Source: a virus
Length of the DNA stretch: 49,646 bases
Strand: one strand, 5' to 3'
Virus record (IMG/VR): IMGVR_UViG_3300045988_091802
The notes below the pieces were generated by a model that saw nothing but the letters and a program-made list of their open reading frames with translations, was not told the DNA's origin and ran no database searches. Position 1 is the first letter of the stretch. Each line of letters starts with the position of its first letter. Shown in pieces: positions 3,704 to 49,646 of the stretch. The position numbers and the translations under genes are program-made.

Positions 3704-3961
3704 ATGGAAAAGATAGAACAAAAACGTAGGGAGTGCAAACAACCTTCATTGCAACAGCTTGTATCGTCGTTAAAGCCGTGCAAGATATTAGACGAAGTAG
3801 AATATCAAATCCTATTCACAAGAAGGAAGGACAATAAAGAACCGGATAAATGGAGCGCAGGTTATTATAGCTTCGATAATTGCTGTTGGCTTTTGGTTGG
3901 GTACGGGAAAACTTTAAGAAGTGCAATTTTACACCTTAAAAAGCAATTAAGATTGAGATAA
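3704..3961 (+). CDS. Hypothetical protein
   Basis: 85-aa ORF packed tightly between neighbouring genes. Confidence 0.5.
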   Translation: MEKIEQKRRECKQPSLQQLVSSLKPCKILDEVEYQILFTRRKDNKEPDKWSAGYYSFDNCCWLLVGYGKTLRSAILHLKKQLRLR

Positions 3962-8961: not shown

Positions 8962-9072
8962 ATGCCAAGTGGAAGCGAAAGCAGAAGCGGCGGTAGCCGG
9001 ATAAGAAGAAGCACCGCAGCGAGCCAAAGGGGTTACGTTCCGTGGAATCCTTCAATGGACACCCCATTTTAG
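8962..9072 (+). CDS. Small S/R/G-rich hypothetical peptide (36 aa)
   Basis: A strong AAGGAGG lies 5 nt upstream of ATG 8962. Too short to be confident. Confidence 0.25.
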   Translation: MPSGSESRSGGSRIRRSTAASQRGYVPWNPSMDTPF

Positions 9073-9137
9073 TAGTGAGTAACACAGAGCCGCACCGACA
9101 GCACAAAGACGCGGCGCGGCTCTTAATTCTATTTCAG

Positions 9138-14103: not shown

Positions 14104-16422
14104 ATGCCCGAAAAGGAAAACAACATAATAGCGCAGCTTAGAGGATTTGACGCGGAGCATTACGCGGCAACGGAACGTTACGCCCGGCAGATTGAGCGGC
14201 TATACAATACAGCTTGCGATGAATTTGCACGCATTGGCGCAGGAATAGAAGAAACGGAAACCGTGTTTTCATTCGACAAGCTGCCGAAAACGAGAAAACA
14301 GGCGCAAGGGATATTAACCCGGCTTGTAGGCAAAATGGAAGCCGTCATTACGACCGGGACAAAAGCCGAATGGTTGGCAGCTTGCAAAAAGAACGACGCT
14401 TTTATAGCCGCAATACTACGCACAGCCAAACTGACCAAAGAAGAAGTAGAGCAATACCAAAGCCGAAACCTCGAAGCACTTCGCACGTTCCAACGTCGTA
14501 AGGTTGAAGGATTGGGATTAAGCGAGAGGGTATGGAGGTATGCCGGAGAATTGAAAGACGCTATGGAATTGGGCATAGACGTAGCGTTAGGGGAAGGCAA
14601 GAGCGCACAAGAGTTAAGCCGGGATTTGCGGAGCTACCTCCAAGAACCGCACAGGCTTTATAGGCGTGTGCGTGACAAAGGCGGAAACTTGCGTTTGAGC
14701 AAGGCGGCTAAGTTGTACCATCCCGGACAAGGTGTTTACCGTTCTTCGGCAAAGAACGCGCAAAGGTTGGCTCGGACGGAGGTAAACATGGCATACCGGG
14801 AAAGCGAGTTTTTAAGATGGCAGAAGTTGGATTTTGTTGTAGGCTTGCGCGTCATGCTGAGCAACAACCACACTACGACCAACAGCAAAGGGGAAAAAAT
14901 TCCGCTTGTAGATATTTGCGACGAACTATGGGGCGATTACCCTAAAACGTTCAAGTTTACAGGTTGGCATCCGCAATGCCGTTGCTTTGTTGTGCCTATT
15001 TTGTCGGACTATGACGAATATAACCAAGACAGGGCGAACAGGCTAAAAGCGATTGTTAGGAAAGCGAAGTACGAAAGCCTTCCTTCACGCCGTACCATCA
15101 CGGACGTACCGGCTAAGTTTCGGGAATACATAGACAGTATTAAGGAACGAGCTAAGGGCTGGAAGTCTATGCCCTACTACATTCGGGATAATTTCAAAGG
15201 CGGTAAGATAGAAGGCGGACTAAACGCAAACATACCGACAAAGACGATGAACAACGTAAAACCGTGTACGGAATTTGACAGGGAAATAAACTACCTTAAA
15301 CGTTGGGCATACGCTTTGGGAGGCGATATGTCAAACATTGACGCGCTTAGAACCGCAGGAAACCGGGAAGCATTGGAAGCCGAAATAGAAAAGGTTAGAG
15401 ATGTCATGGACGGCAATTTAGACAAATGGCACGATGCGCAGAACGAACTAAGCCGGGTTATTACGGTAAGCCTAAAAGGGTATTCGGATATACAAAGCGA
15501 GTTCACGAAGATTTTGCAGGACAACGCATCTTCAACAAAAAGATACTACGGAGATTGTATTAGCCGCTTGAAACAGGCGGTAAAAGACGCTTTGGCTAAG
15601 TTGGCAAAGGCAAAGGAAGAAGAAGCCAAAAGCGGAGATAAGCCGCATAAGGCACTACTTAAAAACTACACTACCGAAGCGCAGGTAGATAAGACTTTCA
15701 AGGAGATAAACGACGGGCTTACCGAAAAATGGTTTGAGAACGGCGACCTTAAATTAGGAGTAGAAACGCATAGGGGTAACAACGGCTCTACGTGGATGGA
15801 CGGCAGAACCTACCTAACAACGGATAGGCTTGCACGGGTAAAATCGGCATTGGGCAAAATAGGGCAAGGAAAATCGGCGGAGATTACAGAACTTGAAGCC
15901 GACGCGATGGCTACATTTTGGCACGAGATTACGCACAACAGGAACAAGCGAGGGAACATGTATTTAACAGATACGCAAAGGGCATTTATGGAATTAGCCA
16001 ACGAGTTTGTAGCGCGAAAGTCTTTGCCGGAGTTTTACCGGGTATTGGGCTGCAAAGAAACGCCGCAAGCGCAATTCATAAGCAACCGCAATTCAACAGG
16101 CTATAACGACATGGTTAATAACTACGATTTGGTAATTAGGGAATTGGGACTTAACGCTGATAAGGCATTGGCGACCGTTAGGAAGAATTTGTTTAACGAA
16201 GTTTACTCAGACCAAGCAACCGGGCTAAAACAAGGTCTTATAGATGGAGGACTTAAACGGCTGGACGGAAAGAAAATAAAGGCTTCGGAGCTAAACAGCC
16301 TATTAAAAGCTATAAGGACAACTAAGGGAAGAGTTTATATGAACATAAACGGAGATTGGGTAAAGGAAAGCCGGGAAGAACAAATGGTTAAATGGTTGAA
16401 GAAAAACGGATATTTGGCATAA
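14104..16422 (+). CDS. Head morphogenesis protein (SPP1 gp7/Mu F-like) with a roughly 440-aa C-terminal extension carrying HExxH
   Basis: MuF hallmark GWHPQCRCFVVP is near residue 300. The C-terminal region contains FWHEITHNR...MELANE, which is zincin-like. Confidence 0.75.
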   Translation: MPEKENNIIAQLRGFDAEHYAATERYARQIERLYNTACDEFARIGAGIEETETVFSFDKLPKTRKQAQGILTRLVGKMEAVITTGTKAEWLAACKKNDAFIAAILRTAKLTKEEVEQYQSRNLEALRTFQRRKVEGLGLSERVWRYAGELKDAMELGIDVALGEGKSAQELSRDLRSYLQEPHRLYRRVRDKGGNLRLSKAAKLYHPGQGVYRSSAKNAQRLARTEVNMAYRESEFLRWQKLDFVVGLRVMLSNNHTTTNSKGEKIPLVDICDELWGDYPKTFKFTGWHPQCRCFVVPILSDYDEYNQDRANRLKAIVRKAKYESLPSRRTITDVPAKFREYIDSIKERAKGWKSMPYYIRDNFKGGKIEGGLNANIPTKTMNNVKPCTEFDREINYLKRWAYALGGDMSNIDALRTAGNREALEAEIEKVRDVMDGNLDKWHDAQNELSRVITVSLKGYSDIQSEFTKILQDNASSTKRYYGDCISRLKQAVKDALAKLAKAKEEEAKSGDKPHKALLKNYTTEAQVDKTFKEINDGLTEKWFENGDLKLGVETHRGNNGSTWMDGRTYLTTDRLARVKSALGKIGQGKSAEITELEADAMATFWHEITHNRNKRGNMYLTDTQRAFMELANEFVARKSLPEFYRVLGCKETPQAQFISNRNSTGYNDMVNNYDLVIRELGLNADKALATVRKNLFNEVYSDQATGLKQGLIDGGLKRLDGKKIKASELNSLLKAIRTTKGRVYMNINGDWVKESREEQMVKWLKKNGYLA

Positions 16423-33100: not shown

Positions 33101-34166
33101 AGGTGGGAAAACGGACGGACTTTTGAAACGTTGCATAAGGGCAAGGACTTCGGAAAGCTATGTTGCGAACGATTGGGTAGAAGCCGTTTACTACGACAAT
33201 ACACAAACCGTAATAGATGGCGGAATAGTGACAGCCGGAACGGTGCAGCTTGCAGGAAACGACCAAAGCATCAAGGCAGGTATTACAGGAAACGGGACAG
33301 CGGAATCAAGCGTTAGGTTTTGGGCAGGTGCAAGCTACGGAAACCGGACTACCGCGCCTTTCCGGGTATTGCAGGATGGAAGTTTTGTAGCGACTAAGGG
33401 AACTATTACCGGAACTATATACGCAAACGCCGGGACTATCGGCGGCTTTGCCATTGCAAGCGGAAGAATTGGCGTTGCTTCATCTTCGGGAGCTACAAGC
33501 GGCAGCGGATTTTCCTTGCACGGCAGCTTTATAAAGTTCTCGGACTCCTACCGTTGGGCTTCCATTGGTACAAACGTGCTTCCTGCTTCAACGGGAGTTG
33601 TTGGCGTAGGACGTTTTACAAACAGCACGCCAAACTCTTACGGAACAAATTACGGAATACTAATCAACGTTTCCGGCGCAAATACCAACATAGGAATCGT
33701 AAGCAACGGCGCAATAGTGAGCAACAGTTACATCGTAGATTACGGTATAGCCAAGCTAACGCCTTCCGCTAATAATTGCATTATACCGGGAGATGCTACA
33801 AAGCCTACTTTGTTCAAGTTGATGCCGAGGTTTATTTATTCCAATTCGGGAATAGGATTACCACGGCGCGACTCCATTTGTACCGTATTGGGCATTAGCA
33901 ACACAACGGCGTTTGCGGTACGGGTAGTTATCATTTGCGACCGTACAAGCACGCAAACCGGTTACGTTTGTGGTAGAAATACTTTCGTAAAGAACAGTTC
34001 GGGAGGTAACGCAATGAACAGTAACTATTACCCGTATATGATGGATAATAACGGCAACAACAACACCAATAAATGGAATATGGCTAAGGGAGATATACGC
34101 GAGTTCCTTTTAGTTTGGGACGGTAGCAGCAGTTATTATGCGTACTGCCTTAGCGTGAGGGAATAA
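30153..34166 (+). CDS. Tail tip/baseplate hub protein (Tal-like) with an internally duplicated domain
   Basis: 1337 aa. N-terminal region is typical of a siphovirus tail-associated protein. Residues about 768-863 and 918-1011 repeat (...KRR(I/V)FVSTP..PYD(V/I)GDLW...). Confidence 0.7.
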   Translation: MEQIVIIKADGTQIPLFSRKNTSCVSKAAQKTALLSEDIVSISLTSAVPLDLGIGDHILLYGKPYKFNQLPEPTKEGERRYTYDLKLEGLQYDLIDVHYHLPEDAYGETYYSDLAGHLQVLMWNINRIYPGKWVLGEYPENTEYKNITNSGKNCLQVAQELCNDYGVEFEITTDGKKHTLNFKAKVGITHAFTLKYGRGLGLYQLQRKNVNNSGVITRLYVYGGTENLGSNYGHTRLCLPGTTRLTSFIEDENAIALYGIKEGEKDYDIKPQRVGTVTALGADVITFSDNTMFDLNAKAADGKSTKYLIDGTSAKIKFESGGLAGYEFDLHSYDHATKTFVINKFQDENGMVFPSDTSAAFQIAVGDKYSISDIQLPDEFIEAAEKDLEEEGRKYLPTVSQPQVSYKLELTEGFFIKMWGKEIETEVLHVGDFIKVEDEQIGVNKAVRITQIERDLLKPHSYDITLSDTVTKTTTVRVWNELQEIDEIIKINKLADPAKARRRWKATQELLNMVFDPEGDYYSEKIKPLSIETQMLSVGAKSTQFTLQNIIFQPNYGGDANTLYVSNGTLVHYAIDPEGLKYWALEGATFSGLTPAAAFYLYARCPINGDTGNIILVEGARTVDEEAGYYNFLIGVLNSVVTDAGGKNPGRLVSLTYGSSTVNGRFIRTGRIESSGGGKCYFDLDNDEIGGVIKFVKNDGTVVNVTDVDDKANEVKDYINNTLPGILNEMQSQLDGQIEQFFEEYDPTTSNAPANSWNTTQLKDEHLGDLFYNTTTGKVFRWVKNGNTYSWQELQDSEVAQALALANDALKLAGTKRRIFVSTPTTPYDVGDLWVQGSTGDIMRCRTARASGSYNAADWVKACKYTDDSGLTNFINNNFNPKVNDLTNQIDGKIESWFQTSDPASAWTTTALKKKHVGDMWYSSTTKLLKRYSSSYAWTTIEDQKAIDAYEAASKAQDTADGKRRVFVSTPRPPYDIGDLWLTGGKTDGLLKRCIRARTSESYVANDWVEAVYYDNTQTVIDGGIVTAGTVQLAGNDQSIKAGITGNGTAESSVRFWAGASYGNRTTAPFRVLQDGSFVATKGTITGTIYANAGTIGGFAIASGRIGVASSSGATSGSGFSLHGSFIKFSDSYRWASIGTNVLPASTGVVGVGRFTNSTPNSYGTNYGILINVSGANTNIGIVSNGAIVSNSYIVDYGIAKLTPSANNCIIPGDATKPTLFKLMPRFIYSNSGIGLPRRDSICTVLGISNTTAFAVRVVIICDRTSTQTGYVCGRNTFVKNSSGGNAMNSNYYPYMMDNNGNNNTNKWNMAKGDIREFLLVWDGSSSYYAYCLSVRE

Positions 34167-34316: not shown

Positions 34317-34577
34317 ATGCAAAACAGAAACGGCGACTTAGTAAGCGCACAAATTTCGGTAGCCGGAACAGTGGACTTTTCCGGCGGAAACTTCCGAATG
34401 GACACGCCTTTTTGCTTGAAGAACGACGGCGAAACGGCGGTAGTGCTTGAAGTGAACCTTTGGGGAATGCCCGAAGGGGAATTTATAAGCACACGGTTTG
34501 AAACGGGTTGGAATCCCGAAATCATACGAGAGATTAAAAAGACAAGTTCAGCAACCGCCCTTGTTTGGGGCTATTAA
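34317..34577 (+). CDS. Hypothetical protein, first gene of the DGR operon
   Basis: 86-aa ORF directly downstream of P3. Confidence 0.55.
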   Translation: MQNRNGDLVSAQISVAGTVDFSGGNFRMDTPFCLKNDGETAVVLEVNLWGMPEGEFISTRFETGWNPEIIREIKKTSSATALVWGY

Positions 34578-34588
34578 AACATTTGGAT

Positions 34589-35920
34589 ATGGGCATATTT
34601 ATAGGTATTGGCAACACGAAGCCAGCATTTCCCTACGATTACTACTACGGGGTGCAAATCAACGTGAATGTAGCGGACACGGCACTAACGAGAGTTGGGC
34701 GACCGGAATTGCACGTAACGCTGCCGGTGCAGTCATTGATGCGCCGTTGTTTGATTAACGACAGCGGAGAGGTAGTAACATACTTGCACCCGACAGACAG
34801 CACCAAGACCGACACGGGAGCGACGGCAGACCTTACGGGAACTACCGGGCAAGTCATGGTAGAGATACCGAAGCACTACCGCAAATTCGAGTTTGACGGG
34901 ACGATCATAACCGCGCTTATTTCCTTATACAACCTTCCGGGCTTCCACGAAGTGCCGAAAATGTATATCAGTGCATACGAAGCGACCATAGACCGGACGG
35001 CAAGCGAAACGCCGAAACTTGCAAGCGTAGTAAACAAAACCGCAAACTTCCGGGGAGGTAACAACAATTCAGCGTGGGACGGTACATATAGAAGCCTGTT
35101 AGGACTTCCGGCAACACAAACAAGCCTTACCAACTTCCGCAAGTATGCGCGGAACAGGGGAGAAGCCGGGTTTAACGGTTGCGGTTGGAATTGCAACCTA
35201 TACGCCGCGCAAGTGGCTATGTATTGGCTTTACGTCATTGAGTACGCAAACCGCAACTGCCAAGCCGCATACAACGCAGAACCTACAAGCGAAGGGTACA
35301 AACAAGGCGGATTGGGCGACGGCGTTACCACTATAAACAGTGGGAAATGGAACACTTACAACAGCTATTACCCGTTTGTGCCTTGCGGCTTTACAAACAG
35401 TTTGGGAAACCGTACCGGCGTAGTAGAGTTCACGATGCCGGACGAATACGACACGGGGGTAGTAACCAAAGTAAACGTACCTTCATATAGAGGTGTGGAA
35501 AATCCGTTTGGGCATTTGTGGAAGTGGACGGACGGCTGCAAGTGCGAGATACAGAGCGACACGGACGGAGCTTTATCGAAGTTCTACGTTTGCTTAGACC
35601 CTTCCAAGTTCCAAGACAGTAGTTATAACGACTACGATATGCGCGGAGAATTGCCGAGAAAAGAGGGGTACGTTAAGCGCATGATGATAGGCGAATACGG
35701 CGACATCATGCCGACGGAGGTAGGCGCAAGTTCTACGACCCACTTTGCGGACTACTTCTATACCAATATACCGACTTCCGGCGCGGCTATGAGGGGTGTC
35801 TTGTTCGGTGGTGGCGCGTCTAACGGCGCGGGTGCCGGGCTCTCGTGTGCGCGTACGGGTAGCGCGGCTGCGTCTGCGGGTGCGTACTTCGGCTCTCGGC
35901 TTTGCTTTATCCCGGCGTAG
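34589..35920 (+). CDS. DGR variable (target) protein 1, a putative receptor-binding tail fibre with a C-terminal VR
   Basis: The C-terminus ..GVLFGGGASNGAGAGLSCARTGSAAASAGAYFGSRLCFIPA is encoded by VR1. Located after the tail tip genes. I prefer ATG 34589 over the TTG at 34565. Confidence 0.85.
   Translation: MGIFIGIGNTKPAFPYDYYYGVQINVNVADTALTRVGRPELHVTLPVQSLMRRCLINDSGEVVTYLHPTDSTKTDTGATADLTGTTGQVMVEIPKHYRKFEFDGTIITALISLYNLPGFHEVPKMYISAYEATIDRTASETPKLASVVNKTANFRGGNNNSAWDGTYRSLLGLPATQTSLTNFRKYARNRGEAGFNGCGWNCNLYAAQVAMYWLYVIEYANRNCQAAYNAEPTSEGYKQGGLGDGVTTINSGKWNTYNSYYPFVPCGFTNSLGNRTGVVEFTMPDEYDTGVVTKVNVPSYRGVENPFGHLWKWTDGCKCEIQSDTDGALSKFYVCLDPSKFQDSSYNDYDMRGELPRKEGYVKRMMIGEYGDIMPTEVGASSTTHFADYFYTNIPTSGAAMRGVLFGGGASNGAGAGLSCARTGSAAASAGAYFGSRLCFIPA
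35794..35906 (+). repeat. DGR variable repeat VR1, aligned to the full TR
   Basis: Hand alignment of 113 bp to 36393-36505 gives 25 mismatches, all at TR adenines. Confidence 0.9.
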
Positions 35921-35945: not shown

Positions 35946-35978
35946 CCCCAACCGCCGCGCCATTATTGGCGGTTGGGG
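35946..35978 (+). other. Perfect 11-bp stem hairpin downstream of VR1
   Basis: CCCCAACCGCC - 11 nt - GGCGGTTGGGG, about 40 nt after the end of VR1. Confidence 0.6.
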
Positions 35979-36007: not shown

Positions 36008-36367
36008 ATGAACGAAAATAACAATAACCGAAAGGAACAGCAGGAGGATGACGGCAGTCTGTCGTTTTTGGCGATACCGCAAGACGAAGGAAACAAGCAT
36101 TTCAACTGCCGGGAAACAACCCAGCAGAAACTAATCAACCTTACGTTTTGGGTTTGCGACTTCATAGAGGGAGTTAAAACGAAATTCGGCGCGGAACGCT
36201 TCTTAGTTAAGATAAAGAAGAACCGGGATGACAAAGACAGCGAAGCCGAAAAGTTCTTTACCAATTCAAGCGAAATAAAATACGTTTTGAAGGAAATAAA
36301 GAAACGGAACGCTTTCCCTCGCCGGGTTACCATGAGGGCAAGCGGAACGCGCTATTACTTCGAGTGA
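36008..36367 (+). CDS. Candidate DGR accessory protein, in the Avd position but not obviously Avd-like
   Basis: 119 aa, between the target gene and the TR. The basic C-terminus fits. The sequence does not look like a four-helix bundle to me. Confidence 0.45.
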   Translation: MNENNNNRKEQQEDDGSLSFLAIPQDEGNKHFNCRETTQQKLINLTFWVCDFIEGVKTKFGAERFLVKIKKNRDDKDSEAEKFFTNSSEIKYVLKEIKKRNAFPRRVTMRASGTRYYFE

Positions 36368-36392: not shown

Positions 36393-36505
36393 GGGTGTCT
36401 TGTTCGGTGGTAACGCGAATAACAGCGCGAATGCCGGGCTCTCGTATGCGAATACGAATAACACGGCTACGAATACGAATGCGAACATCGGCTCTCAGCT
36501 ATACT
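36393..36505 (+). repeat. DGR template repeat (TR)
   Basis: Adenine-rich. In the VR frame it reads GVLFGGNANNSANAGLSYANTNNTATNTNANIGSQ, with 10 AAY codons. It matches VR1, VR2 and VR3. Confidence 0.9.
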
Positions 36506-36626: not shown

Positions 36627-37661
36627 ATGAAAAGGTTGGGCAACCTATACGATAAAATTATAAGTTTGGAAAACTTACGGATCGCAGACAAGCGGGCTCG
36701 TAAGGGCAAACTTAACACCTACGGCGTTAAGGTACATGACCGGCACGCCGAAGCCGACCTTTTGGCTTTGCACGAAGAATTGAAGGCAGGAACTTACAAG
36801 ACTTCGGAATATAGCACCTTTTTTATTTACGAACCGAAAGAACGTGAGATTTTCAGACTACCGTACTTTCCCGACCGCATCGTACACCACGCAGTAATGA
36901 ACGTGTTAGAACCCGTATGGGTGTCCATATTCACGGCGGACACATACAGTTGCATCAAAGGGCGAGGAATACAGGCGGCAGCGGACAAGTTACGGCGCGT
37001 GATAGACAGGGACAAGCCCGGTTGCGCCTATTGTCTGAAAATTGACATACGGAAGTTTTACCCTTCCATCGACCACGCTATATTAAAGCGGATTGTTCGC
37101 CGGAAGATTAAGGACACACGGCTACTTAGACTTCTTGACGAAATAATAGACAGCGCGGACGGACTGCCCATCGGGAACTACCTAAGCCAATTCTTAGCAA
37201 ACCTCATGCTTGCGTACTTTGACCATTGGGTTAAAGAGACCAAGCGCGTAAGGTATTATTTCAGATACGCCGACGATATTGTAGTATTGCACAGCGACAA
37301 AAGGGTATTACGCGCCTTGCTTGCCGACTTTGAACGGTATTTGAACACCGAACTAAACCTGTATGTCAAAGACAACAAACAGATTTTCCCGGTAGCGAAA
37401 GACCACAAAGACAGGCACGGGCGCGGCATTGACTTTTTGGGATATGTGTTTTACCACAACGAAACACGGCTAAGAAAGCGTATCAAACAGAACTTTTGCC
37501 GGAAGGTAGACAAGTTGAGGAAGCGGAAGAAACCGATAGGCGAAGCGCAGTTCATGCAAGCCGTAGCCGCGTGGTGGGGATGGGCGAAACACAGCGATAG
37601 CGAGTATTTTATCAACAAGTTAAATAAAATTTCACCTTATGAAATCAAATTCAAACGTTAG
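36627..37661 (+). CDS. DGR reverse transcriptase
   Basis: RT motifs including the DGR-typical IGNYLSQ and the catalytic YADD (RYADDIVVL). 344 aa, 121 nt downstream of the TR. Confidence 0.9.
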   Translation: MKRLGNLYDKIISLENLRIADKRARKGKLNTYGVKVHDRHAEADLLALHEELKAGTYKTSEYSTFFIYEPKEREIFRLPYFPDRIVHHAVMNVLEPVWVSIFTADTYSCIKGRGIQAAADKLRRVIDRDKPGCAYCLKIDIRKFYPSIDHAILKRIVRRKIKDTRLLRLLDEIIDSADGLPIGNYLSQFLANLMLAYFDHWVKETKRVRYYFRYADDIVVLHSDKRVLRALLADFERYLNTELNLYVKDNKQIFPVAKDHKDRHGRGIDFLGYVFYHNETRLRKRIKQNFCRKVDKLRKRKKPIGEAQFMQAVAAWWGWAKHSDSEYFINKLNKISPYEIKFKR

Positions 37662-40220: not shown

Positions 40221-41537
40221 TTACCCATTATTATCAGTTTTCCCGAAGTTGTCAAACCGTGCCATATTTTCGGCTTTTGCCGCATCTACTATTTTAATAT
40301 AAGGCTTCATAGCTTTATAGTCGCTGTGTCCCGTCCATTCCATTATAACCGAAGCAGGAATACCAAGGCGAAGCGCATTAACTATAAAAGTTCGCCTTCC
40401 GCAATGTGTGGTAAGAACCGCATATTTAGGTACTACAACCTCTTTGCGTTCACTACCACTATACGACACGACACTAACAAGCTCATCCAACCCGGCGATT
40501 TCGGCAGCTTCATGTAGATGCTCATTCATTTTTACGTTGCTTAATACGGGCAAAGCCTTATTTCCGGGCAAGTGTATTCCCTTGTATTTATCAAGTATTG
40601 CAAGAGCATAGCTATTTAGCTCAATATGTAGCCTATCGGTTGTTTTCTTTGTAACAATAGAGATATAAGGAGGAACGGCATCGCGTTTTACGTCAGAAGA
40701 TTTAAGCCGCGCTACGTCAGAATAACGCAACCCGGTAAAACAACAAAAACAAAACACATCGCGAACAGGAGGTAACGACGGTTTATTAGGGGGAAACTTG
40801 AAGTTCATAAAGTGCTGCAATTCGTCCCACGTCAAAAATATGACCTCTTTACAGTCCAATCCCTTGAAGCGTGGGCGATATTGCAAATGAGCAGCACCGG
40901 AGTAATAACCGTTAGCGGAAGCCCAACGCAAGAACCAACGAACGAAACCTACGTTTTTGGCGACCGTGGTATTAAGCTGTCCTTCTTCTTTTTGCAGATA
41001 CGACACAAAGGCGGCAAAGTCAGACTTTGAAAAATTATCTAAGGAGAGTTCCGGGCGAAAGTTCATTAAGTGATGTTTGATACTTGCAAATTTAGTATAG
41101 GTTGCTTTCGTCCAATTATTCGTAACACCCATTTCGGAAGTGAACCTATCAAAGACCTCGAAGAAGCCCGGCGATTGTTGCTGGGCTTCTTCTTTTTCAT
41201 CGGTAACATGCCGACCGATTGAAGCATAGAAAAGCGGCTTAAATTCTTTCGGCGTTGGCGTTCGGTGGTGTTCAAGTTCAAAACGCGTTAAGACTTCTTC
41301 GACCTTAGAAACCATATTAGAAAGACCCCTATTTATTTCGCCCGAAGTTTGCTTATAGCAATTCTTAGAGCCGAGCGTTACCCGTTGGCTTTCCTTATCC
41401 CATTTGTTAGCGTCAATTACATACCCGGAATGAATATCTATACGATACCCGGAATAACATACGCGCAAACGGATAGGAACGCTTTGGGCGTTCATACCTT
41501 CACGGGTTGATAGTTGAAACTTAACGCTATACTTCAT
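40221..41537 (-). CDS. int: Tyrosine recombinase/integrase (Bacteroidetes type, with an N-terminal arm-binding domain)
   Basis: Catalytic pattern ..GLRYSDV.., ..HCGRRTF.., ..GHSDYKAMKPYI... N-terminus is typical of Bacteroidetes integrases. Confidence 0.9.
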   Translation of the reverse strand: MKYSVKFQLSTREGMNAQSVPIRLRVCYSGYRIDIHSGYVIDANKWDKESQRVTLGSKNCYKQTSGEINRGLSNMVSKVEEVLTRFELEHHRTPTPKEFKPLFYASIGRHVTDEKEEAQQQSPGFFEVFDRFTSEMGVTNNWTKATYTKFASIKHHLMNFRPELSLDNFSKSDFAAFVSYLQKEEGQLNTTVAKNVGFVRWFLRWASANGYYSGAAHLQYRPRFKGLDCKEVIFLTWDELQHFMNFKFPPNKPSLPPVRDVFCFCCFTGLRYSDVARLKSSDVKRDAVPPYISIVTKKTTDRLHIELNSYALAILDKYKGIHLPGNKALPVLSNVKMNEHLHEAAEIAGLDELVSVVSYSGSERKEVVVPKYAVLTTHCGRRTFIVNALRLGIPASVIMEWTGHSDYKAMKPYIKIVDAAKAENMARFDNFGKTDNNG

Positions 41538-42220: not shown

Positions 42221-42649
42221 CTATACGGCAGCGGCACATCCGGCATTGCTTTCCGGTTGGGCAGCGGCTTTTTTGTTCTGTTCGGCGAGCATTTCAATGG
42301 TACGCTGTTGGCTTTCTATAATAGAGAGCAAACGCGCCTTTTCTTCTTTTGCGTCTTCAAGTAGTTTATACAGCATTTCGGAAGGCGCAATTTCGGCACT
42401 TTTCGGCATGGCATCCGCTTCCGGGCGTACAGAAAGAAGCATTTCGCCCTCCCCACGCATTAGCCAAACGGGGTTAAGTTGCGGGTATTGTTCGGTTATT
42501 GCTTCTAATTTGTCTGCCTTAATAGACCTTTTAATACTGGCTATATACGCAGAACCTACGCCGATTGTGCGGCAAAATTCCCTTTCGCTTATATTTAGAT
42601 AAGCTATGAACTTCTTAATTCGCTCTTTTACACCACTTTCATTTTGCAT
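42221..42649 (-). CDS. XRE/CI-like HTH repressor candidate
   Basis: N-terminal HTH (LNISEREFCRTIGVGSAYIASIKR) and WLMRGEGEM. Divergent from the early rightward genes. Confidence 0.65.
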   Translation of the reverse strand: MQNESGVKERIKKFIAYLNISEREFCRTIGVGSAYIASIKRSIKADKLEAITEQYPQLNPVWLMRGEGEMLLSVRPEADAMPKSAEIAPSEMLYKLLEDAKEEKARLLSIIESQQRTIEMLAEQNKKAAAQPESNAGCAAAV

Positions 42650-44694: not shown

Positions 44695-46755
44695 ATGAAT
44701 AAACAAGTAATCATTAAGCGTTTGACGCTTGTAAACTTCAAGGGTTTACGGAATGTCGCAATAGATTTTAGCGACAATGTTACAACCATTAGCGGACGTA
44801 ACGGAACTGGTAAAACAACTATCAAAGACGCTTTTAGTTGGCTTCTTTGGGGTAAGAACAGCGAAGGCGACACCGATAGCAAGTTTGGCATCAAGACCAA
44901 CGACGCGGACGGTAATTTTATTCCCGACCTCGAACACGGCGTTACGGGTGTGTTTGAAATCATAGACAAAGAAACGGGAGCGGTTGAAACCGTAGAACTT
45001 CGCCGCGTACTTGTAGAAGAATGGAAAGTACCCAACGGGGAAACAAAGCGTGTGCTGAAAGGACACCACACCGACTTTTTCTATAACGGTGTGCCATTGA
45101 AGACGAAAGCGGAATACGAAGCGCGGATTAACGCCATCATTCCCGAAGCAGTCTTTAAGATTATTACAGACCCCTACTATTTCCTTACGCTTCATTGGAA
45201 GGCACAGCGTGAAATGCTTTTGCAGATAGCAGGGAACGTAAGCGAAGAAGAAGTAGCGAGAGGTAGCGAACGTTTTGCCCTATTGCTTGCGCAGCTTACC
45301 GGAAAATCATTGGAAGACTATAAGCGAGAGGTAGCCGCAAAGAAAGCCAAGGTAAACGAACAACTCGAAAAGATACCGACAGCCATAAACGCAATTACAC
45401 AGGTTACGCCGGAAGCACCGGATTACGAAGCGTTGGAGAAAGAAAAGGCAGCTTTGGAAGTGGAGCTTACACAAATAGACGAATCGGTAGCATCGGAAGC
45501 GGAAGCCAACCGGATAGCCTACGAGAAAGCATCGAAGACGCAAGCGGAGATTAACGCGAAACGGACACAGCAACAGAAACTGTTATTTGAAGCCAAAGAC
45601 AAGGCGAGAAGCGAAGCGTATAAGAAAAACGAAGCCTACAACAAGGCAGAACGTGAACTGCGCCAAGTGGAATCAGACCAAACGAACGAAGAACGGCGGT
45701 ACAACGCGGAGCGTTCCCGGCTTCAAGATGACATCAGACGCACGGAAGAAAACAAAAGCAGATACAAGGCGCAACAGGACGAACTGCGCGAAAAGTGGTA
45801 TTCGGTAAGTGCGGAAGAATTTACAGACACTTCCAACCTTGTATGTCCGTTGTTCAAACACGTATGCGCAGACCGGGAAGCATTAGAAAAATACGAAGCA
45901 GACCGGGAAGCAGCTCGAAACAAGTTCTACGAAGACAAACAGGCGCGGCTCGACAACATAAACAAGACCGGAACGCAGCTTACCCAAACGATAGAGGAAC
46001 AAGATGCGGAAATAGCACGGCTTCAAGGATTGTTAGCCGAAACGGAAGAAAAGCACAAAACCGAAGTTTCCGGCTTCGCGGAAAAGCGCGAACAGTTGAA
46101 AAAGACGATGGACGCTAACCCACGTGTAAGCACAGAACCGAATATCAAAGGGGAAGACATACCCGAATGGGTTACGCTTCAAAGCGAGATAGAAACGCTT
46201 TCCGCCGGGCTTCCGAAACAGGATAGCACAACAGCGACCAATACCTCCGTACTTCGCAAGCGTAAGGCAGAAATAACCGCACGGCTTGACGAAGTAAAAC
46301 AGAAATTGAACATTCGCGCAACCATTGAAACCAACGAAAAGCGGATTAAGGAGCTTAAAGCGGAAGCGGAAACGCTGGCGCAGGAAAAAGCCAACTTGCA
46401 GACCGAAGAAACCACAATAGACGATTTTGTTACGGCGCAGATGAACGAAGTAGAACGGCGCGTAAACGCATTGTTTAGCCGGGTACAGTTCAAGATGTAC
46501 CGGACGCAGATAGAAGACGCGAAGCAAGTACCGGACTGCATTTGCTACATAGACGGCGTGAAGTATTCAGACAAGAACGCCGCCGGGAAAGTAAACGCCG
46601 GGCTTGACGTGATTAACACGCTTTGCGCGTTCCACGGGGTAAGCGCACCTATTTTCGTGGATAACGCAGAAAGCATCAACGAATTTATACCGGTAAACAG
46701 CCAACTCGTAAAGTTGGTGGTAACTACCGAAGACTTCAAGGTAAACAATTTCTAA
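44695..46755 (+). CDS. SMC/SbcC/Rad50-like AAA ATPase (recombination)
   Basis: N-terminal Walker A (ISGRNGTGKTT), long coiled coil, C-terminal ..IFVDNAESI... Confidence 0.75.
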   Translation: MNKQVIIKRLTLVNFKGLRNVAIDFSDNVTTISGRNGTGKTTIKDAFSWLLWGKNSEGDTDSKFGIKTNDADGNFIPDLEHGVTGVFEIIDKETGAVETVELRRVLVEEWKVPNGETKRVLKGHHTDFFYNGVPLKTKAEYEARINAIIPEAVFKIITDPYYFLTLHWKAQREMLLQIAGNVSEEEVARGSERFALLLAQLTGKSLEDYKREVAAKKAKVNEQLEKIPTAINAITQVTPEAPDYEALEKEKAALEVELTQIDESVASEAEANRIAYEKASKTQAEINAKRTQQQKLLFEAKDKARSEAYKKNEAYNKAERELRQVESDQTNEERRYNAERSRLQDDIRRTEENKSRYKAQQDELREKWYSVSAEEFTDTSNLVCPLFKHVCADREALEKYEADREAARNKFYEDKQARLDNINKTGTQLTQTIEEQDAEIARLQGLLAETEEKHKTEVSGFAEKREQLKKTMDANPRVSTEPNIKGEDIPEWVTLQSEIETLSAGLPKQDSTTATNTSVLRKRKAEITARLDEVKQKLNIRATIETNEKRIKELKAEAETLAQEKANLQTEETTIDDFVTAQMNEVERRVNALFSRVQFKMYRTQIEDAKQVPDCICYIDGVKYSDKNAAGKVNAGLDVINTLCAFHGVSAPIFVDNAESINEFIPVNSQLVKLVVTTEDFKVNNF

Positions 46756-46774: not shown

Positions 46775-47515
46775 ATGAATTACAAAGAAATCAAGTCCTA
46801 CGAGGACGCTTGTAAGGTTTTGGGCGTTCAGCCCATCAGTGAAAACGCGGTAGCAGCTTTCCCGGCAGAAGACCGAAAAAGTATGTTAGCTTACCATAAG
46901 CTGACAATAATAGCACGAGCCATTAACGGAGGGTGGAAGCCGGATTGGAACAACAGAAGCCAATACAAGTATTACCCAGTATTCTACTACGAACATGCCG
47001 GGCTCTCGTATGCGGCTGCGAATTACGCGGCTTCGAATACGGTTGCGAACTTCGGCTCTCGGCTTTGCTTTCAAACGGAAGCGATGAGCGACTACGCCGC
47101 CGCCACGTTCGCCGACCTATACACGGACTTCTATTGCCTTCCGGCTTCGGTGGAGAAAGAAGAAAGCCAACAGAGTAACAAGCAGCCCGGCGACTTCTTG
47201 AAAATGGCAACTGATATTATAGAAACACAGTTGCAGCCGTTGGCGCAGGAAAAGAAAACGCGCGGTGTTGTGCTGATTGCTTGCGACGCGGACACGACGG
47301 ACGAAAAAGGAGAAAGCGCAACCGGGGCAATTATTGGAATTGTCGGAAACGGAAAAGCGTTGGCACACGGAGTAGCCGAACTTATGACGCGGAAAGAATC
47401 CGCACCGCTTGTAAAACAGGCTACGGAACTTATAGCGATGCAAAGACTACAAGAGCGGATTAAGCAAGAGGGCTCGAAGTTCCTCGCGGAATTATTCACA
47501 CAACAAGAAAAATAG
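46775..47515 (+). CDS. DGR variable protein 3, a small non-structural paralog with the VR in mid-protein
   Basis: Contains VR3 (..AGLSYAAANYAASNTVANFGSRLCF..) at residues about 75-99 of 246. Paralog of the junction-spanning protein. Confidence 0.8.
   Translation: MNYKEIKSYEDACKVLGVQPISENAVAAFPAEDRKSMLAYHKLTIIARAINGGWKPDWNNRSQYKYYPVFYYEHAGLSYAAANYAASNTVANFGSRLCFQTEAMSDYAAATFADLYTDFYCLPASVEKEESQQSNKQPGDFLKMATDIIETQLQPLAQEKKTRGVVLIACDADTTDEKGESATGAIIGIVGNGKALAHGVAELMTRKESAPLVKQATELIAMQRLQERIKQEGSKFLAELFTQQEK
46997..47069 (+). repeat. DGR variable repeat VR3, aligned to TR 36433-36505
   Basis: Hand alignment of 73 bp gives 12 mismatches, all at TR adenines. Confidence 0.88.
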
Positions 47516-47517: not shown

Positions 47518-48357
47518 ATGACCATGTGCAATATAAAAGAGTTACCAAGTGCAGCCATAGAAGAAGCCAAAGGCAAGTTTGAAATGGCTTGCAAAGAAGC
47601 TATGACGTTGGAAATAGTGGGAAACGTTGCGGCAGCGTTCAACGCGGTAGGAGTTGTAACGCTACTTCGCGAAGCATTGACAAACGACATAATGGACGCA
47701 GTTTTTATGCCGCTTATGAACACTAAAATAGGCTTTATGACCGACCACACGGGAAAGCCAAACAGCAAGGGACAGACTTTGCCGCTTTATTCGCGCGACG
47801 TTGTACGCGATTGCATTATAGACGCGGTTATTATTGGCTTGCTTCCAACAGGAAACCAATTTAACATATTGGCGGAAAGGATGTACCCAACGAAGGAAGG
47901 ATATACCGCGCTTCTTAAAAAATTGGGCGTTAGGTATATTATTGAGATTGGGCAAGACAAGAGCCAAAGCCCACAATACGCGGAACTTGCCTGTAAGATT
48001 AACTACGAGTACAACGGGGAAAAGAACAGTTTTACCGTGAACACAACCGTAGCAAAGAACGCTTACAGCAGCAACGACCAGATACGGGGGAAAGCGGAAC
48101 GCAAGGCGAAGAAAGCGTTATACGAATACATTACCGGCTCGGACTTCGGGGACGGGGACGAATCAAGTACGGTAGTGGTGGATGCTGTTGCAGTTGAAAT
48201 TAGGGATGAAGCGAACAAGGGCGAAGCTATCGGGATAGACCAAGCGACGGAGGAAAAAAACGTTATTGCAGAGGATAAACCGCAGCCACAACCCCAGCCG
48301 CGACCACAACCGCAGAAGGCAAACGAAAGAAGCAACAACGCTAAACCGGCTTTCTGA
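47518..48357 (+). CDS. Putative recombination (single-strand annealing-like) protein
   Basis: Called on position only: it lies between the SbcC-like ATPase and the MBL hydrolase. Has a PQ-repeat tail. Confidence 0.3.
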   Translation: MTMCNIKELPSAAIEEAKGKFEMACKEAMTLEIVGNVAAAFNAVGVVTLLREALTNDIMDAVFMPLMNTKIGFMTDHTGKPNSKGQTLPLYSRDVVRDCIIDAVIIGLLPTGNQFNILAERMYPTKEGYTALLKKLGVRYIIEIGQDKSQSPQYAELACKINYEYNGEKNSFTVNTTVAKNAYSSNDQIRGKAERKAKKALYEYITGSDFGDGDESSTVVVDAVAVEIRDEANKGEAIGIDQATEEKNVIAEDKPQPQPQPRPQPQKANERSNNAKPAF

Positions 48358-48359: not shown

Positions 48360-49118
48360 ATGGAACTTACCGTTATATCTTCAAGCAGCGAAGGCAACTC
48401 CTACGTTTTACAGAACGCAGGGGAAGCCTTGCTGCTCGAAGCCGGTAAGCCGTTCAAGGACACATTAGCGGCATTGGGCGGCAATTTACGCAAGGTGGTA
48501 GGATGCTTGATAACGCACGAACACGGCGACCACGCCGGACGCATAAGCGAGGTACTTAATTACGCCGTACCTGTATTCGCTTCACAAGGAACGATAGAAG
48601 GAGCGGCAAAGTACATAAAGAGCAACTACCAACCAAACGCGATTAAAGCCATTGGCGGAGGTTACGAACGGTTGAACTTGGGCGGATTTACGGTTATACC
48701 GTTCCCGGCAAAGCACGATGCGGCAGAACCGCTCGGCTTCTACATTTGGCACGAAGAAACAGGCGGTATCTTGTTCGCTACCGACACCTACTATCTTCCT
48801 TGCACGTTCAAGGGGTTAAGCAACATTCTTATAGAGTGCAACTATGACCCGGATATATTGGCGCGTAGGGTTGCAAACGGAGATATACCGGAAGTTCTGC
48901 AGGAACGGGTAAGACGCAGCCACCTCAGTTATTACACTTGTTTAGACGCATTGAGGGCGAACGACCTTACAGCGGTAAACAACATTGTATTAATCCATAT
49001 CAGCGACGGAAACGGCGACGGTGTGGCATTTCGGGAAGGCATAGCGAAAGCAACCGGTAAAACGGTGCATATAGCGAAGCCCGGATTAAAAATCAAATTC
49101 AACAAAACACCATTTTAG
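48360..49118 (+). CDS. Metallo-beta-lactamase fold hydrolase/nuclease
   Basis: HxHxDH motif (ITHEHGDHAG). Confidence 0.75.
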   Translation: MELTVISSSSEGNSYVLQNAGEALLLEAGKPFKDTLAALGGNLRKVVGCLITHEHGDHAGRISEVLNYAVPVFASQGTIEGAAKYIKSNYQPNAIKAIGGGYERLNLGGFTVIPFPAKHDAAEPLGFYIWHEETGGILFATDTYYLPCTFKGLSNILIECNYDPDILARRVANGDIPEVLQERVRRSHLSYYTCLDALRANDLTAVNNIVLIHISDGNGDGVAFREGIAKATGKTVHIAKPGLKIKFNKTPF

Positions 49119-49519: not shown

Positions 49520-49538
49520 TTCATAAATTCATAGAAAG

Positions 49539-49646
49539 ATGAAAAAGATTTTTTTGTACAAACTTCTTGAAGACCAAGAAACGGAACTTATAGGACGCTT
49601 TGACACGTTGAAAGAAGCGCAAGAAAAGGTAATAGAAATGACCGAG
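49539..49646 (+). CDS. 5' end of DGR variable protein 2, continuing at base 100 of the window through the circular junction
   Basis: ATG 49539 (MKKIFLYKLLEDQ...). Bases 49548-49646 duplicate 1-99. Confidence 0.75.
   Translation, partial: MKKIFLYKLLEDQETELIGRFDTLKEAQEKVIEMTE

Follow-up and report, generated by a model that had tools for sequence, protein, structure and literature searches.

The phage genome, its DGR and the remote target genes

The window, i.e., the whole stretch of 49,646 nt analyzed here, is the circular 49,547-bp genome of a temperate phage of the gut Bacteroides type; its final 99 nt repeat nt 1–99 and represent the circular assembly overlap. A single DGR is present, and its one template repeat (TR) is matched by three variable regions (VRs), located in the canonical tail protein target and in two paralogous proteins of the early operon. 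The features are as follows.

34565–35920, plus strand: canonical target, a tail protein of 451 aa (phrog_5302 tail protein, E 4e-140)
35794–35906, plus strand: VRb, the canonical VR, 113 nt; 25 of 30 adenines changed, no non-A changes
36008–36367, plus strand: Avd-like accessory ORF, 119 aa, between canonical target and TR; putative, from position and size only
36393–36505, plus strand: TR, 113 nt, intergenic and A-rich
36490–36505, plus strand: 3′ end of the TR, GGCTCTCAGCTATACT, the IMH*-like counterpart
36627–37661, plus strand: DGR reverse transcriptase (RT), 344 aa (PF00078, E 2.8e-18; phrog_1423, E 1.8e-126)
46775–47515, plus strand: remote target gene 1, 246 aa, part of the rightward early operon (phrog_11581, E 2.6e-45)
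46775–47149, plus strand: N-terminal VR-bearing domain of gene 1, residues 1–125 (AF2 pLDDT 86.4, pTM 0.81; VR loop below 50)
46994–47069, plus strand: VRc, the VR of primary interest here, 76 nt, residues 74–99; A-only mismatches to the TR
46994–47053 and 47054–47069, plus strand: diversified part of VRc and its fixed IMH-like 3′ end (GGCTCTCGGCTTTGCT)
47186–47512, plus strand: C-terminal extension domain of gene 1, residues ~138–246 (AF2 model: helix, beta-hairpin, two helices)
49539–49646 continued at 1–543, plus strand: remote target gene 2, 183 aa, a wrap-around ORF (phrog_11581, E 1e-31)
388–463, plus strand: VRa, the other remote VR, of 76 nt, residues 133–158; 15 A mismatches and one T-to-G

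The TR lies upstream of the RT gene, with 121 nt between the TR end and the RT, and the nearest RTs among GenBank phages are those of crAss-like phages (55–57% identity). The putative Avd ORF has phrog_19665, a family without assigned function, as its sole match, with none in Pfam or NCBIfam. A scan of both strands of the whole window reveals exactly three VRs for this TR, at 388–463, 35794–35906 and 46994–47069, and the window is a clean example of a three-target DGR. VRb, at the extreme C-terminus of the tail protein, corresponds to all 113 nt of the TR, and VRc and VRa to the 3′ 76 nt only (36430–36505). With this shared part, about ten codons between the A-poor anchors AGLSYA and GSRLCF are rewritten in the remote VRs.

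A sequence-only reading of this DNA had aligned positions 46997–47069 with TR 36433–36505 and had counted 12 mismatches, all at TR adenines. An ungapped re-alignment gives exactly 12, and the repeat was found to run 3 nt further in the 5′ direction, which adds a 13th A mismatch. VRc and TR 36430–36505 are thus 83% identical over 76 nt, and every one of the 13 mismatches falls on a TR adenine. Changed in VRc are 13 of the 23 TR adenines and none of the 53 non-A positions; the probability that 13 randomly placed mismatches would all land on adenines is 7.5e-9. The alignment also bears out the claim that VRc differs from VRb at many TR-adenine positions. Ten of the adenines are diversified, all in codon positions 1–2 of AAY/ACG/ATC-type codons, and they are in the same reading frame as those of VRb.

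The last three mismatches are of a different kind. Here the TR reads CAGCTATACT and the VR CGGCTTTGCT; VRa, VRb and VRc all carry these differences, as do the VRs of related phages in every case where the repeat could be traced as far as that end. Because they are constant across VRs and relatives, they represent a fixed IMH-like end and not diversification. The VR 3′ end thus differs from the TR 3′ end in a fixed manner, as IMH does from IMH*, and may be a candidate directionality element. In a search for hairpin or cruciform structures, no inverted repeat was found within ~130 nt 3′ of VRc or VRa, and an 11-bp stem (35946–35978) was detected downstream of VRb only.

Gene 1 is flanked on one side by a gene for an SbcC-like ATPase and downstream by a 279-aa ORF (47518–48357). 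It had been described as lying between an SbcC/Rad50-like ATPase and a putative recombination protein. The 279-aa ORF, the putative recombination protein, has no family match in Pfam or among PHROG profiles; a RecT-like protein occupies its slot in related phages. The neighbors are recombination and replication genes, with no obvious defense genes, and the position in the early operon is syntenic with that in phage Versailles. Neither remote target has a signal peptide or a TM segment, and both proteins are acidic. Neither the remote targets nor the neighbors without family are matched in Pfam (even at E≤10), NCBIfam or PADLOC. Among GenBank phages, neither the 15.6-kb region (megablast) nor the full 246-aa protein (E≤1e-5) has a match; to find homologs there, the query had to be either the N-terminal domain by itself or a typical member of the family, with a cutoff of E≤0.01.

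Gene 2 starts with the ATG at 49539, crosses the circular junction and ends at 543. Its product displays an acidic N-terminal extension followed by a VR-bearing domain as in gene 1, with 25 residues after VRa, and is a paralog of the VRc protein (48% identity, E 1e-34). This second paralog is missing from the closest relatives (L001–L005) and is thus dispensable.

Variability of VRc among related phages

The 246-aa remote target has 295 homologs. In 53 of these, with at least 85% identity, columns inside the VR have a mean entropy of 1.10 bits and those outside it 0.18 bits, and A-encoded codons specify up to 14 different residues each. Around the variable codons of the same 53 sequences, AGLS, A86, A91 and GSRLCF are invariant. 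VRc is therefore hypervariable across strains; invariance would have pointed to an inactive relic. The remote VRs of eight related IMG/VR contigs show A-only mismatches to their own TRs and share the lineage-specific non-A changes of those TRs, e.g., CTCTCG to CTTGCG and CGGCTA to CCCCCT. Nine TR/VR contig pairs were compared; the match is full-length in eight, and in the ninth (L004/L039) it extends over 42 nt only. The RT, TR and canonical target are all intact.

The A-only mismatches, the hypervariability between strains and the co-variation with the TR together support the core of the sequence-only reading, i.e., a remote and independently diversified DGR VR in a gene of the recombination or early region. 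On these sequence comparisons, VRc is a genuine and currently active remote VR of the single DGR of this phage, and not a relic. From the differences between assemblies we infer that VRc is also diversified within populations.

An old homing or gene-conversion event, frozen since, would account for a VRc that sits 10.5 kb from the TR, shares just 76 of the 113 nt and has no hairpin downstream. A relic would gather substitutions at non-A positions, of which there are none in 53. It would also be hard to reconcile with a VR that is extremely variable, strictly at A-encoded codons, in proteins otherwise 95–96% identical, or with an architecture kept in at least five unrelated phage lineages. The hypervariability in close homologs and the tracking of non-A changes of the TR lead to the rejection of this explanation, which is very improbable. 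A chance similarity or low-complexity repeat with a coincidental A bias, for which the internal AATACG repeats of the TR might speak, is effectively excluded by the mismatch statistics (76 nt at 83% identity with each mismatch on an adenine, P~7e-9) and by the whole-window scan (only three such sites on both strands of 49.6 kb), and a generic TR/VR detector finds no pair in 25 of 34 control loci and only family-related pairs in the other nine.

Domain architecture and fold

VRc had been placed at about residues 75–99 of the 246-aa protein with about 147 residues after it; it encodes residues 74–99, and 147 residues follow. VRs are typically at the extreme C-terminus of their proteins and VRc departs from this, but such a position is not obligatory. 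The description of VRc as lying in mid-protein holds for the polypeptide and not for the domain, as the VR is found near the end of an N-terminal domain of ~120 aa. In the model this domain consists of helices at 9–16, 23–26 and 31–51, the segment GWKPDWNN...KYYP, the VR loop, GSRLCF, and helices at 102–111 and 113–120. Linker residues 123–137 have pLDDT below 50. The 147 residues after VRc are thus not one unit: the first two helices belong to the N-terminal domain, and these are followed by the linker and by a separable C-terminal domain at ~138–246. P0131 and P0256, which are stand-alone proteins, correspond to positions 137–244 of the profile only. Conversely, a profile search returned 3,544 clusters, and among the 150 matches listed nearly all cover positions ~1–120 only. 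Most of the family consists of stand-alone proteins, with lengths of 115–190 aa, and in stand-alone members ~26 residues come after the VR. It is therefore the fusion of the VR-bearing domain to a C-terminal domain that makes the VR look internal.

A comparison with C-type lectin (CLec)-fold targets, which the sequence-only reading had proposed, gave no detectable similarity beyond the VR by Foldseek, hhalign or BLASTP. The AF2 model of the whole protein (pLDDT 70.5) yielded only noise in Foldseek against the PDB, and the N-terminal domain model gave a best E of 1.8, with the VR loop at pLDDT below 50 and no positive control with the tail target. Alignment of the family profile with a 64-sequence profile of the canonical target C-terminus (hhalign) is confined to 29 VR-encoded columns, and BLASTP recovers FGSRLCF only. 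FGE-sulfatase and DUF1566 (Pfam, E≤10) have no match in the remote targets, and PDB sequence and profile searches with the family alignments and a homolog from LoVEphage found nothing meaningful. It should be noted that a PDB search with the C-terminus of the canonical tail target does not match solved CLec proteins either, and thus the PDB sequence/profile route cannot decide the fold. Outside the VR, the domain in its sequence and predicted structure is not detectably a C-type lectin.

A divergent minimal CLec fold, with two extra C-terminal helices and, here, a fused domain, is a possible though somewhat doubtful description of this small domain. According to Benler et al., C-type lectin domains are present in the two targets of Quimbyvirus (PMC8008677). 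In addition, one TR serves both the small domain and a tail protein with the CLec-like motif NPFGHLWKWTDG, such that the VR element must fit both scaffolds, and the two N-terminal helices, the W-rich GWKPDWNN that precedes the VR and a long stretch of ordered coil loosely resemble an FGE-type CLec. The restriction of similarity to the 29 VR columns and FGSRLCF is less easily accommodated, as is the Foldseek result obtained with a model of pLDDT 86 and pTM 0.81, albeit one with a poorly modeled VR loop. Moreover, the VR is followed in the model by two helices, where the CLec fold has a closing beta-strand.

A recurrent target family and its possible function

The novelty implied for VRc was overstated. 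Both Benler et al. 2021 (PMC8008677) and, for induced Bacteroidota prophages, Dahlman et al. 2025 in Nature (PMC12629997) had described phages of Bacteroidota in which a second VR is located distally in a non-structural gene; VRs away from the protein C-terminus are known from the tentaclins of Baykov et al. 2023 (PMC10743442). A close likeness is to Quimbyvirus/LoVEphage, a temperate Bacteroides phage with one RT, one TR, a VR at the C-terminus of a tail-associated protein and a second, distal VR in a small non-structural protein. In LoVEphage (MW660583.1), QVQ57199.1 is a homolog of the N-terminal domain from the window (tblastn E down to 2e-6; 4e-10 with the family member P0185 as query); it contains a VR that aligns with the TR of LoVEphage, and ~27 residues follow this VR. 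Methyltransferases, PAPS reductase and RtcB are encoded nearby, in agreement with the description of Quimbyvirus ORF 84 (PMC8008677). LoVEphage nevertheless belongs to a different phage group, with 71–75 kb as opposed to 49.5 kb for the window. Its one distal target has a full-length VR and no fused C-terminal domain, and is encoded on the other strand among methyltransferases and the RtcB ligase, whereas the window has two paralogous distal targets that draw on just the 3′ two-thirds of the TR, within a co-oriented recombination/replication operon, and its gene 1 has the fused domain. The C-type lectin named by Benler et al. for the distal target (PMC8008677) is not detectable here outside the VR. 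Dahlman et al., whose collection includes LoVEphage, report four targets and, in the accessible text, define neither their family nor their domain structure (PMC12629997).

Tentaclins (PMC10743442) also belong to two-target phage DGRs, and one VR is near the N-terminus because other domains follow the VR-bearing domain. They are proteins of 313–649 aa with an N-terminal CLec (DUF6273), 1–4 Ig-like domains and a conserved C-terminal Ig anchor, presumed to be virion-attached and encoded adjacent to the RT. The protein from the window, in contrast, has no Ig or DUF6273 match and is encoded in an early operon, and its C-terminal domain is modeled as a helix, a hairpin and helices and not as an Ig sandwich.

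Both remote targets match PHROG 11581, an entry that itself carries no functional or DGR annotation and that is also matched by tandem-array targets in two other loci (L017 and L020). The family is very large (the profile search yields thousands of clusters at 50% identity) and unnamed, and has no Pfam, NCBIfam or PDB relative. Foldseek against BFVD finds only uncharacterized phage proteins, i.e., members of the family from MAGs of siphoviruses, podoviruses and crAss-like phages; thus the spread of the family is confirmed and no function is provided. Family members are distal targets in LoVEphage (19 of 19 mismatches at A, with 15 kb in between and the target on the other strand), BT-TP2 (10 of 10), Versailles (15 of 16; 43 kb away) and the crAss-like cr115_1 (15 of 15; ~59 kb away). 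In addition, dedicated cassettes are found at seven loci (L014, L017, L018, L020, L024, L025 and L030), with an A-only TR directly 3′ of one to three VR-bearing small-domain genes. The RT is directly downstream of the array at these seven and at L022, eight in all. The two cassette loci that were annotated, L020 and L017, are within recombination/replication modules. The PHROG 11581 domain is therefore targeted by DGRs repeatedly and in two settings, as the distal target of tail-type DGRs and in target–TR–RT cassettes.

The distal targets of Quimbyvirus/LoVEphage, BT-TP2, Versailles and cr115_1 and the cassettes all use one conserved small domain. That a single domain family, not detectably C-type lectin outside the VR, lies behind these targets is not stated in the literature consulted. 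With one published and testable distal target (Quimbyvirus/LoVEphage), three previously unannotated ones (BT-TP2, Versailles and cr115_1) and the cassettes, scattered observations become a defined protein family. Standard DGR callers centered on the RT and metagenome surveys miss such remote targets.

The DGR resembles that of Bordetella phage BPP-1, where Mtd carries a C-terminal VR in a CLec fold, in its RT, putative Avd-like ORF, TR, adenine mutagenesis and AAY-type codon design, and in a fixed 3′ end that differs between TR and VR as do IMH and IMH*; VRb is of the canonical BPP-1 kind. By analogy with BPP-1, the RT would copy the TR RNA (36393–36505) into cDNA with adenine-specific errors, and the mutated cDNA would replace homologous DNA wherever a VR has the matching 3′ end. 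This end would here be GGCTCTCGGCTTTGCT, which also codes for the conserved GSRLC(F) motif. Three sites qualify, the C-terminus of the tail protein and a surface loop in each of the two paralogous small early-operon proteins. VRc differs from the BPP-1 VR in its distance of 10.5 kb from the TR, its location within a coding region of a non-structural gene, a scaffold that is not detectably CLec, and the lack of the downstream hairpin element that BPP-1 has. As VRc is inside the coding region, any cis element must encode protein too.

The remote proteins may be soluble, early-expressed intracellular binders whose loop is diversified to follow a variable partner. Such a function, with a host defense or host-takeover target as the most likely partner, is proposed tentatively, as somewhat less than an even prospect. 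Distal VRs near counter-defense genes have been reported (PMC8008677, PMC12629997). The genomic neighborhood in the window is circumstantial evidence only for a role in conflict.

A virion component encoded outside the structural module, e.g., an accessory receptor-binding, decoration or ejected protein diversified for host range or adhesion, is an unlikely alternative in view of gene context. In six lineages (the window, Versailles, L020, L017, LoVEphage and BT-TP2) the gene has the orientation of the early genes and lies far from the structural ones, in regions devoted to early functions, recombination, replication or methyltransferases; cr115_1 is not informative in this respect as all neighbors are unannotated. 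No Ig-like or anchoring domains are detected with Pfam, and most family members are stand-alone proteins. A virion location would be consistent with a TR shared with the tail protein, and hence the same variable-loop sequence space, and with the tentaclins, a precedent for a VR domain at the N-terminus combined with anchoring domains at the C-terminus (PMC10743442). Cys13 and Cys98 are conserved and might form a disulfide, a possible sign of a location in the virion or otherwise outside the cytoplasm. In Versailles the homolog bears the annotation "tail protein", a label that derives from HHpred against PHROGs and is suspected to reflect VR-type similarity; a structural role on the basis of this label was rejected, as the gene is in a recombination/replication operon syntenic with the window.

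The best explanation overall, very probably, is that VRc is an active remote VR in a member of this recurrent target family. A more specific proposal, rather unlikely in its full form, is that the PHROG 11581 domain is a dedicated DGR scaffold with neither a C-type lectin nor an Ig fold. A helical platform would present a VR loop ending in GSRLCF, which would double as the IMH homing element, and the domain would serve as a programmable intracellular binder against variable host defense or takeover targets in Bacteroidota phages (siphoviruses, Quimby/LoVE-like and crAss-like), serviced by its own RT or by the TR of the tail fiber. If true, this would be the first family of DGR-diversified intracellular phage effectors, and it would add a third type of structure to those that accommodate DGR variability. 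The usual account of DGRs is that they act on tail fibers to alter host range; the rewriting of small soluble early proteins would imply a second variable phage-host interface, inside the cell. The family is open to study in cultured phages, i.e., Versailles, BT-TP2 and LoVEphage-like isolates.

A remote variable region within the early operon

Nucleotides 1-99 of the window are identical to nt 49548-49646, and these shared ends indicate a circular assembly with a genome of 49,547 bp. The phage is temperate and of siphovirus type. Its main features are listed below, with VRa, VRb and VRc denoting the variable regions.

Features of the phage genome
11022, TerL
12493, portal
20057, major head protein
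24213, 1,405-aa ORF, probable tape measure, judged solely from size and position
30153, tail protein
34565-35920, canonical tail target, with VRb at its extreme C-terminus
35946-35978, perfect 11-bp stem with an 11-nt loop (CCCCAACCGCC/GGCGGTTGGGG), 40 nt past VRb and 26 nt past the target stop codon
36008-36367, Avd-like ORF
36393-36505, template repeat (TR)
36627-37661, DGR reverse transcriptase (RT)
38814, endolysin
40221-41537, leftward, integrase
42221-42649, repressor-like regulator
43742, rightward, regulator, early operon
44695-46755, rightward, SbcC-like ATPase, early operon
46775-47515, rightward, VRc target, early operon
between VRc target and MBL-fold hydrolase, rightward, 279-aa ORF without assigned function, early operon
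48360-49118, rightward, MBL-fold hydrolase, early operon
between MBL-fold hydrolase and VRa target, rightward, 132-aa ORF without assigned function, early operon
ATG at 49539, across the junction to 543, rightward, VRa target (183 aa; listed as ORF 7-543), early operon
after VRa target, rightward, in order: 281-aa ORF without assigned function, DUF6291 protein, DnaC-like loader, early operon

Start and stop codons abut or overlap at both remote target genes, and from their map position in the operon both are early genes. The distance to the TR is 10.56 kb for VRc and, around the circle, ~13.5 kb for VRa.

The sequence-only reading had placed a remote DGR variable region in a gene between the recombination genes, and both the observation and its interpretation are upheld. 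Re-alignment of 46997-47069 with TR 36433-36505 is ungapped and shows the 12 mismatches reported, 12/12 at TR adenines. The repeat extends 3 nt further in the 5′ direction (46994-47069 with TR 36430-36505, 76 nt), where a thirteenth A mismatch is gained. Over the 76 nt, 13 of the 23 adenines are changed and none of the 53 non-A positions (P = 7.5e-9 for 13/13 mismatches on adenines, with random placement among 76 positions). All diversified adenines of VRc (10/10) are at codon position 1 or 2. Translated in the VR frame, the TR reads NAGLSYANTNNTATNTNANIGSQLY* and is AAY-rich, which is typical of DGR templates. When both strands are scanned with adenines as wildcards, exactly four copies are found in the window: the TR and the VRs at 388-463 (VRa), 35794-35906 (VRb) and 46994-47069 (VRc).

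The last three differences between TR (CAGCTATACT) and VR (CGGCTTTGCT) are identical across all VRs of the window, and are also constant in related lineages wherever the detected repeat extends to that end. Thus they belong to an invariant IMH/IMH*-type end rather than to the diversified part. An inverted-repeat search found no hairpin 3′ of VRc or VRa; the stem at 35946-35978, downstream of VRb, could be a terminator or a DGR cruciform element. VRa (409-418) displays one non-adenine difference from the TR, a T to G at TR 36459 adjoining a mutated adenine; a common point mutation or an RT error at the neighbouring site would account for it.

Transfer from the template repeat to remote sites

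VRc is almost certainly an active remote DGR target, as two tests independently indicate. Many homologs of the VRc protein at 85-96% identity are present in the protein database, and among 53 of these the variation clusters at residues 79-93, where a single column can show as many as 14 different residues. Column entropy averages 1.10 bits inside the VR vs 0.18 elsewhere; A75, G76, A80, A86, A91 and G94-C98 do not vary. The invariance that would point to an inactive relic is therefore not found, as VRc is hypervariable across strains.

For TR/VR co-variation, target loci were paired with RT/TR loci of the same IMG/VR contigs. Eight related phages have a remote VR that shows A-only mismatches to its own TR and also carries its own lineage's non-A differences from the window TR. 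Examples of changes common to TR and remote VR are CTCTCG to CTTGCG, CGGCTA to CCCCCT and AACATC to AATATC. Such sharing is expected only under copying, thus TR information keeps being copied to the remote site.

Several variants of the repeats were observed. The TR of L039 (2767-2879, IMG/VR contig 3300045988_079289), an RT/TR locus paired with target locus L004, has 17 adenines vs 29-30, and over the 42 nt detected the remote VR departs from this altered TR at A positions only. The TR looks partly overwritten by VR-like sequence, as in a natural TR erosion, whereby the diversification space would shrink. Homologs P0002, P0003, P0005, P0012, P0014 and others have a VR shorter by 2 residues (6 nt) and are 244 aa vs 246-247 aa, though otherwise 95-96% identical; one possible source is length variation of the TR within its AATACG repeats. 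A frameshift exactly at the VR 3′ end is present in P0111 (B. thetaiotaomicron PO081_12485), in P0108 (which represents 52 member sequences) and its relatives, and in target locus L028. These read ...ALGFAFPRPRSRNTQ... where others have ...GSRLCF..., with truncated products of 144-145 aa. A DGR-associated indel, pseudogene status or misassembly of a hypervariable site could each explain them.

There is direct support for one TR with three VRs, for differences confined to adenines, for continuing transfer from TR to VR, and for a 3′ end that is fixed. Under the established BPP-1 model, the RT would copy TR RNA with errors specific to A and the resulting cDNA would replace VR DNA, with directionality set by the GC-rich 3′ end and the 5′ crossover within homologous sequence. 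Homology to the TR stops at TR 36430 at the remote sites; the 5′ anchor there would be the A-poor block GCCGGGCTCTCGTATGCG (AGLSYA), and the 3′ anchor GGCTCTCGGCTTTGCT (GSRLC). GSRL is nearly invariant family-wide, including lineages with different TRs, and canonical tail targets also end in a GSRL motif. Thus protein motif and homing element appear to be one stretch. Cis elements have been argued to favor C-terminal VRs (Roux et al. 2021); the identity of motif and homing element would let a VR sit within coding sequence.

The small-domain family as a DGR target

The VRc and VRa proteins are paralogs that share 48% identity (E 1e-34); each matches PHROG 11581, which carries the label "unknown function". 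Searches of Pfam, NCBIfam and PADLOC gave no match to either, and no PDB sequence relative was found, permissive thresholds included. At E ≤ 1e-3 an exhaustive profile search recovers 3,544 clusters (50% identity); of the best 150, nearly all match profile positions ~1-120 only. Stand-alone proteins of 115-190 aa form the majority among the matches listed, and some have two domain copies. The family pattern consists, in order, of K[ST][FY]EDAC, a long helix, ALNEGWKPDWNN, KYYPWF, a variable loop, GSRLCF and YAxxQFxxLY.

The AlphaFold model of the VR-bearing domain alone is confident (pLDDT 86.4, pTM 0.81), with helices at 9-16, 23-26 and 31-51 followed by an ordered coil, a VR loop that is poorly modelled, and two further helices at 102-111 and 113-120. 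In the model of the full VRc protein, residues 123-137 form a low-confidence linker to a second domain (138-246). A separate C-terminal domain had been named as a point to check; 138-246 is modelled apart, and stand-alone versions exist (P0131, P0256). The mid-protein position of VRc holds for the polypeptide but not at the level of the domain, where the VR lies near the end and is followed by ~25 residues, as in the VRa protein and stand-alone members. Thus the unusual position results from fusion of the VR-bearing domain with an extra C-terminal domain. The more distant members L031-L034 lack GSRLCF, and no TR or RT was found within their fetched loci, which suggests that the scaffold is older and that a VR plus IMH module was incorporated later.

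All target-bearing loci were scanned with a generic detector of imperfect repeats (at least 85% of mismatches on A of one copy), with the window as positive control. Seven loci more distant from the window (L014, L017, L018, L020, L024, L025, L030) have an A-only TR directly 3′ of 1-3 small-domain VRs that lie side by side, in most cases in tandem genes. An RT with 55-59% identity to that of the window is directly downstream in these seven and in L022, where the detector found no TR. The gene order in L020 is SbcC-like, RecT-like, MBL hydrolase, ORFs without assigned function, targets with three VRs, TR and RT, with a helicase further downstream. The L017 cassette is flanked on one side by replication-type genes, namely a weak DnaC-like match and an ORF resembling a replication initiator, and on the other by a DNA methyltransferase. 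Family members are also remote targets in named phages.

Template repeats and remote VRs in named phages
LoVEphage MW660583.1, 49383-49500, minus strand, TR, matches tail-collar-fibre C-terminus
LoVEphage, 34004-34116, strand opposite to TR, distal VR inside QVQ57199.1, mismatches at A 19/19
BT-TP2 PQ571279.1, 40633-40744, TR, matches gp44 C-terminus
BT-TP2, 122-233, remote VR inside an unannotated family member, mismatches at A 10/10
Versailles ON453897.1, TR matches tail protein C-terminus and a VR ~43 kb off in WAK79127.1, mismatches at A 15/16
crAss-like cr115_1 NC_055898.1, TR matches a local VR and a VR ~59 kb off in gp88 (122 aa, family member), mismatches at A 15/15

QVQ57199.1 has a C5 methyltransferase, PAPS reductase, Dam methyltransferase and RtcB among its neighbours. 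The BT-TP2 member crosses the ends of its linear record (44.9 kb to the end plus 1-~330), just past cro-like regulators, and for this reason the gene and its remote VR are unannotated. WAK79127.1 (10181-10762) is labelled "tail protein" but lies within an early recombination/replication operon syntenic with the window. Neither the BT-TP2 nor the Versailles record has a DGR repeat feature annotated at the remote site, and the DGR targets reported in the BT-TP2 paper are the large (~2,000-aa) ones only.

Among Bacteroidota phages, distal second VRs in non-structural genes are on record for Quimbyvirus (Benler et al. 2021, PMC8008677) and for four induced prophage species (Dahlman et al. 2025, PMC12629997). 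The B. dorei CP011531.1 prophage corresponds to LoVEphage as well as to Quimbyvirus. Tentaclins (PMC10743442), like the VRc protein, have VRs away from the C-terminus. VRc thus belongs to an already known kind. What appears new, relative to the open-access literature, is that the tested published distal target and several unannotated ones form one small-domain family; that this family occurs as dedicated target-TR-RT cassettes within recombination/replication modules and as a remote target in crAss-like phages (for zeta crAss-like phages, PMC12386605 discusses tail-fibre DGR targets only); and that the phage of the window has two remote targets of this family, one of them joined to an additional domain.

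Fold and possible role of the remote targets

Judged from sequence and modelling, the remote-target scaffold seems not detectably CLec outside the VR, which is also apparently new to the open-access literature; confidence in the fold is moderate to low. In BLASTP, FGSRLCF is the only match between a remote target and the canonical target of the window. Likewise, hhalign of the family profile against a canonical target profile (64 sequences, C-terminal 220 residues) aligns the 29 VR-encoded columns and nothing more. In the suggested comparison with CLec-fold targets, a Foldseek search of the PDB with the domain model gave a best E of 1.8 (with the VR loop poorly modelled and no positive control), and BFVD matches are uncharacterised phage proteins only, from siphovirus, podovirus and crAss-like MAGs. 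The Quimbyvirus counterpart is said to contain a C-type lectin domain (PMC8008677), a call that could, on the present data, derive from the VR segment alone.

A signal peptide or TM segment is absent from both remote targets, in which 19-aa hydropathy peaks at 1.11 and 0.73; with net charges of -4 and -14, the two proteins are acidic. Family genes are consistently in early, recombination, replication or methyltransferase neighbourhoods, and tandem paralog arrays occur. The VRa gene is missing from the closest relatives, L001-L005 (93-97% nt identity), as a clean ~634-nt indel (window 49526-49646 plus 1-513; L001 9614/9616) between the 132-aa and 281-aa ORFs, and is carried by L006, L015 and L021; in this respect the VRa target resembles a dispensable cassette. 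Distal VRs have been interpreted in connection with nearby counter-defence genes (PMC8008677, PMC12629997). Taken together, these features lead to a best guess, tentative at present, that the remote targets are soluble early binders with a loop that tracks a variable intracellular partner, e.g., a defence or takeover target. Alternatively they may be virion-associated.

Other genes of the phage were also noted. A 772-aa head-morphogenesis or minor-head-type protein (14104-16422) also matches the Bxa-like ADP-ribosyltransferase phrog_16625 (E 3.5e-77), and the similarity suggests a putative virion-packaged ADP-ribosylating effector. Nucleoside 2-deoxyribosyltransferase-like, PAPS-reductase-like and ParB-fused DNA methyltransferase genes (3038-4914 and 9042-10565) are likely to have DNA-modification or anti-restriction functions; a PAPS reductase adjoins the LoVEphage distal target as well.
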